64,000 nt of DNA from contig CM075989.1 in assembly GCA_038087875.1 (NCBI GenBank), positions 23,748,001-23,812,000 on the forward strand, read 5' to 3'. Every line of letters begins with the position of its first letter. Positions within the stretch are counted from its first letter, which is position 1. The notes beneath the pieces are model-generated. The model was given only the letters and a program-made list of their open reading frames with translations, did not search any database and was not told the DNA's origin. A program made the translations under genes and the position numbers. Below, piece by piece: positions 4,095-63,816 of the stretch. This stretch comes from Malacoraja senta (taxonomy: Eukaryota).

Positions 4095-4772
4095 GTATAA
4101 GAAGGAACTGCAGATGCTAGTTTAAACCGAAGAAAGACACAAAGAGCTGGAGTAATTCAGCAGGTCAGACATTAAAGTTTGATCGGATTTTACTGGCCTT
4201 ATCTTGCACTAAAGGTTATTCTCTTATCGTGTATCTATACACTGTGAATGGCTCGATTGTAATCATGTATTGTCTTTCCGCTGGCTTGTTAGCACGCAAC
4301 AGAAGCTTTTCACTGTACCTCGGAACACGTGACAATAAACTAAACTAAACTATCTAAGCAAGTATCTCTGGAGAAAAGGAATAGGTGACGTTTTGGATCG
4401 AGATCCTTCATCAGACTGAGAGTCAGGGGAAAGGGAAACGAGAGATATAGACGGTGATATAGAAAAAATGGATGAAAGATATGCAAAAAAGTAACGGAGA
4501 GGCCATTGTTAGCTGTGGGCTAGGTGAAAACAAGTTACAGACAATGAAACTAACCAGGACAACAGTGAAACTGGTACAACAACTTGGGTGGGGGCGGGAT
4601 GGAGAGAGAGGGGATGCAAGGGTTACTTGAAGTTAAAGAAACCAACACACATACCACTGGGGTGTAAGATGCCCAAGCGAAATATGAGATGCTGTTCCTC
4701 CAATTTGCGTTTGGGCTCACACTGACAATGGAGGAGGCCCAGGACAGAAAGGTCAGTGTGGGAAGGGGAATC
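4095..4772 (-). mobile_element. Penelope-like element 3' end (GIY-YIG endonuclease C-terminus plus 3' region with hammerhead motif), interrupted by a Rex1/Babar 3'UTR piece (~4171-4358)
   Basis: My translation of minus 4772-4623: DSPSHTDLSVLGLLHCQCEPKRKLEEQHLIFRLGILHPSGMCVGFFNFK*, typical of a PLE GIY-YIG tail; CTGATGA-AGGATCTCGATCC-AAAACGTC at 4414-4387 on the same strand. Confidence 0.8.
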
Positions 4773-6006
4773 ACCCCCTAAATCCATGATCCATTAAACA
4801 ATGGTGTTGGTCTGTAAACTATTTAAAGGATGCTTTAGTAACTTGACATCTAACCAGGCACAGTGTGCAGTTATTCACCTGTGGCATCATCTTTTCTTTA
4901 AATGGGACTTAAGAGCAGACAATTCATTTTCTGCAACTGATGTTCAGCTTAAAGGAACTAGGTTCTGAACACAAACAATTAATTATAATTTTCAAGCACA
5001 CAGCGTTCTAGCCTTCACTTTGCACCACGCACTAGGAATAATTTTGAGGCAATCCCAACACAATTAGTCATAGCAATATTTTAAACAAAGAGGATTTTGA
5101 AAGGTTTGCCTCACAAGCTAATGAAGTGCCTTCAATTAAAAGAGGTTCTCGTGTAGAAGAATGTCATTTCTGGAGATCGCTGGTCTGCATTAAATGATAA
5201 TTCAAATGCTGTTTAGGTCTTTTAACTTTGCAACAGCTTTGAAATAGACACCTCCACAAAGATTGATACATTGGCAGGAAACAAAGTATTCGAAATACAT
5301 CCAAATGCTGAGGATTAAAATTCCCGACCAATGCAAAAATTATTCAGAATGTGCAAGCTTCAAAACTCACATTATTTAAGAGAAAGAAACAAGTAAAACA
5401 AGCAGAGATACGGAGTGTGGAGAAGGGTCCCGACCCGAAACCTCACCTCTCCATGTTCTCCAGAGGCACTGCCGCCAGCTGAGAGACTCCAGCACTTTGT
5501 GTCCTTTTGAATATAATCAAAACCTTGCTTTCACAGTGGTATCAGAAACAAGAGCATTGTTTAACGGTGAGAGGTAGGAGATTTAAATGGGATCTTTGAG
5601 GGGTACGTTGTATTTGCAAGGAGTGGTTGATATTGGAAAGGTGGTGCCACAGGAGGTGATTTAGGAACAATCACTGTTTAAGTGGAATTTAGACCAACAC
5701 TTAAAATGGTGAAGCACAAAATTTGGCCCTAATGCAGGCAAATGGGCTGAGTGTCGATGGGTAAAAAGGTCGGCATGGATGTGGTGGGCATAAGGGCTAG
5801 TCTCTGTGCTGTACGACACGATGAAAAACGGACATAGAATATATTAGATTTCAATACAGTTTGAATCAAGAGTCAAGAGTGTTTTGTTGTCATGTGTTCC
5901 AGATGAACACAATGCAGCCGCACAACAGAATATGTAAACATAATACACTGTAAATAGAATGATCACCAATAACACTCAAAATAATAAACGAGAAAAAAGG
6001 TTTGGT

Positions 6007-6515
6007 GCACATACACACGCACACACATACACACATACACACGCACACACACACACACACACACACACACACACACACACACACACACACACACACACAC
6101 ACACACACACACACACACAATAGACAATAGACAATAGACAATAGGTGCAGGAGTAGGTCATTCGGCCCTTCGAGCCAGCACCGCCATTCAATGTGTTCAT
6201 GGCTGATCATCCACAATTAGTACCCCATTCCTGCCTTCTCCCCATTATCCTTTGATTCCGCTATCTTTAAGAGCTCTATCACACGCACGTGCACACACAC
6301 ACGCGCACACACACACACACACATGCTCACACACACACACATGCTCACACACATGCTCACACACGCACGCTCACACACACACACATGCTCACACACGCAC
6401 CCGCACACATATGCTCACACACACACACGCTCACACACACACACGCTCACACATGCATTCTCACACACACACATACACAAGCTCACACACATGCTCATAC
6501 ACATGCTCACACACA
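6007..6515. repeat. (CA)n microsatellite and CA-rich minisatellite flanking a CR1 3' tail (6119-6280)
   Basis: Direct inspection; source of the HT/CV-repeat ORFs. Confidence 0.95.
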
Positions 6516-62260: not shown

Positions 62261-62554
62261 GCTCCTTATCAATGCCTCCATCCAAGTTTGCTCAAGTCTG
62301 AAGTTTCCCCCGTGTTCCCAATGTCCTGCTGTTTTTGGCAGTGTTGTAAGTTTGTCCTTTGATCTATCACGATCCCTCACAACTCTCGATAGCCACAGCG
62401 GGACCACTTTTCCTGTTGGATTTCTGCCTTACACCTAAATCATGCATTCATTCTTTAAAAACTAGTCATTGCTTGTTTGCTTTTATATCTTTCTAATGCG
62501 ATTTCCCAATCTGCCAAAGCCAACTCACGCCTCCTGCCTTCCTAGTCTAGCCTA

Positions 62555-63018
62555 GTTTAGTTTAGTTTAGAGATACAGTGCGGAACTGGGGACAATTTAC
62601 ATTTACACCAAGCCAATTAACCTGCAAACCTGTACGTCTTTGGAGTGTGGGAGGAAACCGGAGATCTCGGAGAAAACCCACGCAGGTCACGGGGAAAACG
62701 TACAGACTCCGTACAGACAGCACTCGCGGTCAGGATTGAACCCGTGTCTCTGGTGCTGTGAGACCCGGGTTTGATCCCGACTACGTGTGCTGTCTGTACA
62801 GGGTTTTTATGTTCTCCCCATGACTGCGTGGATTCGCTCCGAGATCTTCCGTTTCCTCCCACACTCCAAAGATATACAATCAGTCGGCTAATTGGCTTGG
62901 TATAAGTGTAAATTGTCCTTAGTGTGTGTAGGATGGTGTTAATGTATGGGGATCGCTGGTCAGCACAGACTCGGTGGGCCGAAGGGCCTGTTTCCACACA
63001 GTACCTCTAAACTAAAAA
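62555..63018. mobile_element. Head-to-head pair of HE1-type SINEs
   Basis: Minus copy ~62555-62760 abuts plus copy ~62755-63018. Confidence 0.85.
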
Positions 63019-63816
63019 CAATCCACGTTTGTCCAACCTCTCCTTGTGGCTACGCCTTTAAACTCTTGATTTTATATGACTTCATCTACTGAAGAAGGGT
63101 CTCGACACGAAACGTCACCCATTCCTTCTCTCCAGAGATGCTGCCTGTCCTGCTGAGTTACTCCAGCTTTCTGTGCCTATCTTCGATTAAAAACGACATC
63201 TGCGGTTCTTTGCTACACACTTCATCTGCTGTTCATTGAGTGCGGATGAGCAGGTCTTGTGGGCACATGGGCTTCGCAGCTTCCTGACAGTTCCAGTGTC
63301 CATACACTGCACTCTTCACCTTTCAGGAACCTTGGCAACATCCCGTCAGCCATGCCTTGGCTGCAGCTCTGGAAACTTTCTGTGGTCCCTTCGACAAAGA
63401 ACATGCCCTCTGTGGGCACAGACCTTTACCAGCCTCGAAGTATTCTTCCAATAACTCGTGTCAATGCACCATTCATTCGACCAGTGTATAGTGTGTCCTT
63501 TAGGCTGATAAACGTTGAGAACCTGCGACATATTTGGACACTGCCCTGAAACAACACTGTTAGATTCAGCAGCGTTCTGCCCGGGGAAATTACACTTTGT
63601 GAACTTTGCACTGAAATATCTTAACCTTGATGCTTTTTTTTCATGAACAGCATTAAGGTAATCCACACCATTCTATTAACGACTTTAACTCCATTAACAC
63701 TACTTACGGCGACATTGTGGCTCAGCGGGCAGAGCTTCTGCCTCACTAAACCACAGACTCGATTCGATCTTGACCTCCGTTTCTGTCTGTGTGGAGTTTG
63801 CATGTTCTCCCTGTGA

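Follow-up and report, generated by a model that had tools for sequence, protein, structure and literature searches.

A minimal hammerhead motif in the terminal repeats of a Penelope-like element and its end fragments in the genome of Malacoraja senta

INTRODUCTION

Hammerhead sequences in the terminal repeats of Penelope-like elements (PLEs) form an arrangement already known since 2014. As described in the parts of PMC4209133 that deal with minimal hammerhead ribozymes (min-HHRs), monomers of one such ribozyme did not cleave and dimers cleaved little, the descriptor used for PLE hammerheads demanded a helix I of at least 3 bp, and copy numbers were ∼4,000 for coelacanth and ∼9,000 for Xenopus; cartilaginous fish are not listed in the part that gives these counts. 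For the anole element PAc, the relevant parts of PMC11167929 report a hammerhead that cleaves only with protein, uncut RNA as the main substrate and insertion in vitro for which the hammerhead is dispensable. Here we analyse a motif that recurs throughout a 64-kb stretch of the skate Malacoraja senta (contig CM075989.1, positions 23,748,001 to 23,812,000; hereafter the window) and whose sequence matches the minimal type I hammerhead described from the ends of Penelope-like elements. In literature listings on hammerheads or on Penelope-like and Neptune elements of cartilaginous fishes, we found no paper on this repeat family; retrozymes in one chondrichthyan have been reported in bioRxiv 2026.07.22.740005, which may cover the motif family.

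RESULTS

A minimal type I hammerhead with a 2-bp helix I

The motif runs from C3 to A9, continues with one extra A, stem II, G12 to A14 and ACGU, and has C or U at position 17; it contains the core CUGANGA ... GAAANNUH of the PLE minimal hammerhead. An earlier note on the window, made from its letters alone, had assigned it to the minimal type I hammerheads, whose stem III is palindromic, and this identification holds, the palindrome being ACGU. The same note had drawn stem II as GGGTC-TC-GACCC; as a 2-nt loop cannot close a stem, we redrew it as 4 bp with a 4-nt loop (GGGU-CUCG-ACCC), which has the length (3–7 bp), the G10.1–C11.1 pair and the extra base after A9 expected of helix II. Stem III (15.2–16.2) is palindromic, as for a dimer helix III, with C–G in 239 of 440 copies and mostly CpG decay in the remainder.

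Helix I, which the earlier note did not mention, has 2 bp in all three of the intact window copies listed there. Among 102 copies with core and helix II, 62 had 2 bp, 28 had fewer and 12 had at least 3 bp. Because the motif falls short of the standard descriptor, which asks for at least 3 bp, we file it under the 2-bp variant known from Drosophila virilis and Culex, which it matches: U2.1 pairs with A or G1.1 in 187 of 224 copies and G2.2 with C1.2 in 159 of 193, giving GU/AC or GU/GC, and the A2.3/C1.3 mismatch next to them is invariant.

The motif belongs to a Penelope-like element

A full-length copy elsewhere in the genome (L051) has two 726-bp pseudo-long terminal repeats (pLTRs) with 99.3% identity, and the motif is present in both (L051:2898 and L051:6816), ∼120 nt past the stop codon and ∼135 nt ahead of the first ATG. 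The open reading frame (ORF) of 1212 aa comprises a long, Pro/Ser-rich N-terminal region, a reverse transcriptase (RT) with visible DKG and YIDD motifs (Pfam RVT_1, 25.7 bits, E 1e-5), a CxxC linker and, at the C-terminus, a GIY-YIG domain (19.3 bits, E 0.0015); the linker sequence directly before GIY-YIG, CNRKRCNTC, is Zn-finger-like. A single ORF with RT and C-terminal GIY-YIG, together with pLTRs, a tail and inverted truncated copies, is expected of endonuclease-positive (EN+) PLEs, and the linker, a feature common to Neptune and Nematis, points to one of these two, Neptune being the likely clade.

The claim of the earlier note that the repeat is Penelope-derived is confirmed by the motif in both pLTRs of a copy with an intact RT and GIY-YIG frame. 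The GIY-YIG remnant it had seen is also real. Located at about 4772–4641 (−), it corresponds to the final ∼45 aa of the endonuclease domain, shares 69% identity across 45 aa with the C-terminal end of the L051 ORF, and is followed by the motif ∼225 nt downstream on the same strand, with no Pfam match when the remnant is searched alone. As a separate observation, a donor-like AAG/GTATGC at L051:3057–3065 overlaps the first ATG, 162 nt past the acceptor-like CAG/T.

Abundance of the motif

The exact 28-mer motif has 19,784 matches in the 1.94-Gb genome and its reversed control none. For fragments, we ran nhmmer on a 1.258-Mb sample (the window together with 120 gene-body stretches) and obtained 517, or roughly 400 per Mb; extrapolated to the genome this gives ∼750,000–800,000, a rough figure based on gene bodies. 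A descriptor of core plus helix II gave 105 matches in the same sample, 102 of them from the Penelope motif family (about 81 core plus helix II matches per Mb), and 1 in shuffled sequence. The finding extends the known association of hammerheads with Penelope pLTRs to a genome with ∼400 fragments per Mb. High motif counts as such are not new, because up to 120,000 hammerhead motifs have been reported for the axolotl; the density is higher here.

The window itself contains 56 fragments by nhmmer (4 intact, 8 core-retaining, 13 broken and 31 partial), more than the earlier note had counted. The abundance of the motif is far above chance. The Rfam covariance-model scan that it proposed gave no hammerhead among 36 matches with E up to 5. 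Other hammerhead-like cores numbered three in 1.258 Mb by descriptor, none with a helix I, and at L065:5922 (−) there is a hammerhead-like core of another kind with a different stem II.

Copies in the window

The motif is exact at the three places where the earlier note had it intact (11848–11821 (−), 13073–13100 (+) and 40831–40858 (+)), and all 13 of its variants are present, the copy given as 43583 spanning 43582–43610. These copies and the associated parts of the element are as follows.

13073–13100 (+): intact motif whose helix I has 2 bp; cleavage is predicted to follow 13100
12834–13210 (+): 5′-truncated PLE fragment with 3′ untranslated region (UTR), motif, conserved downstream region and tail; 80% over 302 nt to the 4090–4780 copy by blastn
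11821–11848 (−): intact motif with a 2-bp helix I, forming an inverted insertion together with its partner arm 11854–11910 (+)
40831–40858 (+): intact motif in a short stub (40822–40955), helix I 2 bp
40034–40061 (−): core and stem II preserved, changed loop, 1-bp helix I
4387–4414 (−): motif with GGAU/AUCC double transition; G12 to A, core broken
4641–4772 (−): PLE endonuclease C-terminal remnant, assigned by identity to the L051 ORF, ending in GFFNFK and stop
4415–4640 (−): pyrimidine-rich 3′ UTR whose end, CAG/T, abuts the core and is putatively splice-acceptor-like or initiator-like
4094–4170 (−): remainder of the terminal repeat of the 4387 copy, separated by a ∼185-bp insertion of another repeat
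13855–13882 (+): motif with GAGU/ACUC double transition; G12 to A, core broken
2139–2166 (−): variant, stem II mismatch
9430–9459 (−): variant, 2-nt insertion in GAAA
14564–14591 (+): variant, core retained, G10.1–U11.1
16319–16346 (+): variant, core retained, GUU triplet
21546–21573 (−): variant, stem III palindrome lost, helix I absent
22577–22604 (−): variant, pair-breaking A·C in stem II, a single change of the claimed covariation
43582–43610 (−): variant carrying an additional U, one of two arms in an inverted insertion
46280–46307 (+): variant, 3-bp helix I from the flank by chance, palindrome lost
60510–60537 (−): variant, U16.1 changed, core broken
63089–63116 (+): variant, stem II mismatch, begins at the core
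1640–1860 (no strand): head-to-head inverted fragment pair with its joint inside the motif

In four contexts folded, with predictions made at equilibrium and with protein absent, GAAGAAGG is predicted to pair with downstream pyrimidines or with an inverted arm, the probability of stem II is at most 0.04 and that of helix I about 0. For the copy at 13073 a competing hairpin is predicted to dominate (stem II 0.04), and the copy at 11821–11848 is predicted to be buried inside a long fold-back hairpin.

Other repeats share the window. A long interspersed element (LINE) RT remnant of 420 aa at 23997–25262 (−) (RVT_1 E 4e-25), which we take to be CR1-like, is unrelated to the motif, and LINE RT fragments also lie at 21061–21585, 37707–38153 and 61955–62428. 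An abundant family resembling short interspersed elements (SINEs) occurs at 20097–20354, 26000–26264, 27581–27847, 36427–36693, 46141–46493 and 62752–63016, the copy at 46141–46493 being interrupted by a Penelope stub at 46278. A second repeat family contains a 30-bp tandem repeat at 32492–32762 and 29784–29904.

A paired change in stem II is at chance frequency genome-wide

The earlier note had read paired stem II changes as compensatory. Both doubles exist, and in both copies GAAA is indeed changed to AAAA, that is G12 to A, which breaks the core; yet they do not speak for covariation. Genome-wide, among age-matched copies with all other motif positions held perfect, GGATC/GATCC was observed 35 times against 31.5 expected by independence (Poisson p = 0.29), and the single changes comprised 811 pair-breaking A·C and 768 pair-keeping G·U. 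GAGTC/GACTC was observed once, in the copy at 13855, against 0.66 expected in the 317 copies of the sample. When position pairs were ranked by mutual information across 228 copies, those of stem II came at 23, 29, 143 and 368 of 528, and the top signals connect subfamily markers; two-sided covariation was not seen.

Structural support sits at the level of master lineages. Subfamilies differ within the motif at two loop positions, at 11.4 opposite U10.4 (U–A to U·G), at 17 (C/U) and at 1.1 (U–A to U·G); all of these differences are compatible with the structure, and all are one-sided. Between subfamilies, 0 of 13 core positions varied compared with 16 of 62 downstream (p = 0.058). Among eight long copies, the motif was 93% identical and the adjoining UTR 66%, and in the contigs of four other organisms the subfamily-variable sites and CpG decay account for the only motif sites varying at ≥6%. 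Core conservation in 68 UTR-anchored copies was 97.6%, compared with 96.5% downstream (p = 0.17), and G12 was intact in 76% of copies, compared with 74–84% for three other CpG Gs.

Copies within 12 inferred genes show no depletion on the sense strand

The earlier note had placed copies inside introns and had proposed to look for a depletion of intact sense copies there. In the window, no frame reached the Pfam cut-off among 270 unmasked frames with a length of 45 aa or more, which yielded five weak below-cut-off matches and no host gene; a long intron would be compatible with this. Orientation was scored in 1.19 Mb of sequence from within 12 genes, whose presence was inferred where exon matches to Sushi, LDL-A and spectrin follow one another on one strand. 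These gene bodies contained 461 copies, 221 sense and 240 antisense, with sense/antisense counts of 26/19 for intact, 32/34 for core-retaining, 75/91 for broken and 88/96 for partial copies. Without inverted pairs, 20 intact copies were sense and 14 antisense, and UTR-bearing copies were split 33 to 34. Loss of G12 affected 38 of 188 sites in sense copies and 44 of 198 in antisense copies. As intact copies show no deficit in sense orientation and G12 decay is CpG-like, we see no sign of pre-mRNA cutting; dispersed copies of this kind are likely to be harmless remains, not cutters of host RNA. An LRP2-like region was excluded from the orientation sample: on contig C1 at 154.70–154.90 Mb, LDL-A exon blocks recur ∼4 times with equal scores, by tandem duplication or as an assembly artefact.

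The 5′ ends of copies gather at the front edge of the core

The 3′ ends of the copies cluster at two sites, ∼72–75 and ∼92–96 nt beyond the cut site and about 20 profile columns apart. About a third of the fragments are arms of inverted pairs, and the far site was found on one arm only in 51 of 94 such pairs. We scored 5′ ends in 298 non-tandem copies that reach C3 with enough flank, using a library of 110 UTRs. Homology was lost <20 nt upstream of C3 in 99 of 100 inverted arms and in 113 of 198 non-inverted copies, a count that UTR variants absent from the library would inflate, and extended past 80 nt upstream in 55 copies. In 168 anchored copies, the match was 0.92 at +5, 0.80 at −1, 0.61 at −3 and 0.54 at −5.

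One fixed start at the A of TCAGT was rejected, since homology falls off over a zone reaching from about +5 to −5, most steeply between −1 and −3. We also rejected a 5′-end peak at the cut site, around which only 6 of 269 copies start; the pile-up is at the core's front edge instead. With the ends gathered there rather than where the RNA would be cut, it is likely that uncut templates were copied. The stop zone could be due to the RNA 5′ end, a splice signal, fold-back of the TCAG-T-CTGA palindrome or stalling in the pyrimidine tract. This palindrome is the centre of several inverted pairs, and at least seven unlike UTR clusters every one end in a pyrimidine tract plus CAG/T; TCAGTC resembles the initiator consensus. 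Splicing at CAG/T that would lengthen helix I was not supported, as 0 of 262 upstream flanks map to an internal donor, and among the matches listed none had a GT..AG joint into the site.

Tandem arrays

Two cores within 15 nt on the same strand occur at 319 sites genome-wide, the only copies that could dimerise in cis. Tandem junctions at C17 were considered as a sign of cleavage, and 37 of the first 100 listed lay, by eye, within 0–1 nt of C17; we discount this figure because, with the search pattern used, a junction could not lie before C17, and because microhomology (TCA/GTC) confounds it. With an unforced pattern, the 30 junctions retrieved out of 380 were spread from stem II to +3, with two exactly at C17 and four one base later, and the reading as a sign of cleavage in vivo was rejected.

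A tandem array in the window has the following position.

22134–22594 (−): 66-nt tandem units that start at GAAAC and in which stem II and the core's first half are missing; not a retrozyme

This 66-nt unit, which extends from GAAAC to CTCTGT, also forms tandem arrays at 43174–43384 and 49128–49254, and its presence at three places suggests a sub-lineage spreading together with the array. At L046:1550–1860 (−), a 46-nt tandem array of the whole motif has units with U4 changed to A. Tandem units that each carry a complete hammerhead, as in retrozymes, were not found.

DISCUSSION

We consider it probable that the motif is the pLTR minimal hammerhead of a PLE, likely of the Neptune clade, that the window copies are truncated and likely inert end fragments, and that cutting, if there is any, takes place only in the protein-bound RNA of the element. 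By analogy with the anole element, the RT–endonuclease would start cDNA at two internal sites and copy the uncut template through the hammerhead; the cDNA would often stop or switch template at the core's 5′ edge, leaving stubs of 100–135 bp that would then decay neutrally. Selection would keep the core only in master elements, in which protein and a second copy (the ACGU dimer) would compensate for the 2-bp helix I, and protein-assisted cleavage of master RNA may occur as in the anole.

Several observations weigh against this picture or leave room around it. The RVT_1 and GIY-YIG scores of the L051 ORF are both below the Pfam cut-offs. With a helix I below the published 3-bp descriptor and weaker than the CC/GG of insects, the motif may, judged by its sequence, not cut at all. 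The orientation test is compatible with mild depletion (95% confidence interval of the intact sense fraction 0.42–0.72), and 214 of its 461 copies come from one gene, in a set of genes inferred from exon matches; cuts within introns may also be tolerated, which would hide selection. In the 1.26-Mb sample, GGATC/GATCC was found 5 times against 1.2 expected (p = 0.0045), a count that includes the copy selected by the earlier note, mixes copy ages and is smaller than the genome-wide one. Pooled copies show 95.7% conservation in the core and 93.4% downstream, and 94 copies starting just upstream show a core excess as well (p = 0.014); we tentatively ascribe this ∼2-point excess of the pooled sets to alignment-edge bias. 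Taken together, the covariation and the core excess over the rest of the repeat to which the earlier note had tied its case are largely absent, with pairs at chance level genome-wide and p = 0.17 in UTR-anchored copies.

A non-cutting relic is the alternative that we take most seriously, even if we think it rather improbable. It would fit the 2-bp helix I of the subfamilies observed, with its invariant mismatch, the predicted competing fold and the lack of any cutting footprint among 5′ ends or tandem junctions, and the shared end of the unlike UTR clusters, with its initiator-like TCAGTC, would give the sequence another reason to persist. Against a relic stand the retention of all catalytic positions and of the ACGU palindrome, with subfamily changes only where a hammerhead tolerates them, the published 2-bp helix I variants (among those shown in PMC4209133) and the anole motif, which, as the cited part of PMC11167929 has it, is likewise silent until protein is added. 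The model of the earlier note, a genome rich in latent self-cleaving sites whose intact sense copies cut host pre-mRNA, appears very unlikely to us. The 19,784 exact cores, the density of core plus helix II matches, of which 12 in 102 have three or more base pairs in helix I, and the 319 close core-to-core junctions able to dimerise in cis would provide the material, but sense copies are not depleted among the 461, G12 decays alike on both strands, covariation is at chance level, helix I has 2 bp and stem II is hardly formed in context; in published work, min-HHR monomers were uncleaved, as were 8 of 9 Xenopus retrozyme dimers in vitro. Least credible of all, and close to dismissible, is a non-LTR retrozyme family spreading via circular RNA: tandem arrays of 66 and 46 nt exist, and pLTRs are the source of retrozymes, which are reported from one chondrichthyan (bioRxiv 2026.07.22.740005), but the 66-nt units have neither CUGANGA nor stem II, the 46-nt units carry U4 to A, only 17 of 517 fragments are tandem, and the copies show the fixed tail ends of a PLE.

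A useful by-product is that the copying cycle of PLEs, about which little is known, has left its record in insertion ends numbering in the hundreds of thousands: they show two fixed sites where the RT presumably starts, a zone of stops at the ribozyme's front edge, and nothing that would indicate cut templates. Should the stop zone be the RNA 5′ end, a strong-stop and jump step would form part of PLE replication. The negative result has its own value, as ∼400 fragments per Mb are present without sign of selection against sense copies in genes.

Comparison with known systems

With the min-HHRs of metazoan PLE pLTRs (PMC4209133) the motif has in common CUGANGA, the extra base, a stem II with G10.1–C11.1, GAAACGUH and the palindromic 15.2–16.2, as well as its presence in both pLTRs, widespread solo copies and a pyrimidine-rich 5′ flank. 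Helix I, at 2 bp, is shorter here than in all vertebrate rows of Fig. S3 of that paper, and the 19,784 exact copies exceed the numbers for coelacanth and Xenopus. A helix I cut down to 2 bp is shared with D. virilis Penelope and Culex, although their helices are CC/GG; in D. virilis Penelope the 3′ end of an intron abuts helix I, where the acceptor-like CAG/T stands here, and splicing was shown there, whereas 0 of 262 flanks are spliced here (PMC4209133).

Two internal RT starts bounding the tail and an uncut RNA template are also features of PAc, a Poseidon element of Anolis (PMC11167929), for which no reads were seen at the cut site, where our copies have few 5′ ends. PAc is of another clade and its ORF starts inside the hammerhead, in contrast to ∼135 nt downstream here; its activity has been measured (PMC11167929). 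The EN+ PLEs Neptune and Nematis (bioRxiv 2021.04.23.441226) share RT with C-terminal GIY-YIG, the Zn-finger-like linker, pLTRs and inverted truncated copies with the tail on one end; the long Pro/Ser-rich N-terminal region sets the element apart from them, and its likely clade is suggested by the linker (bioRxiv 2021.04.23.441226). Finally, animal non-LTR retrozymes (PMC7229834, bioRxiv 2026.07.22.740005) have in common with it the type I hammerhead, an origin in PLEs and high copy number, but theirs are tandem units of 150–450 bp with a whole ribozyme, whereas those of the skate are dispersed truncated stubs.

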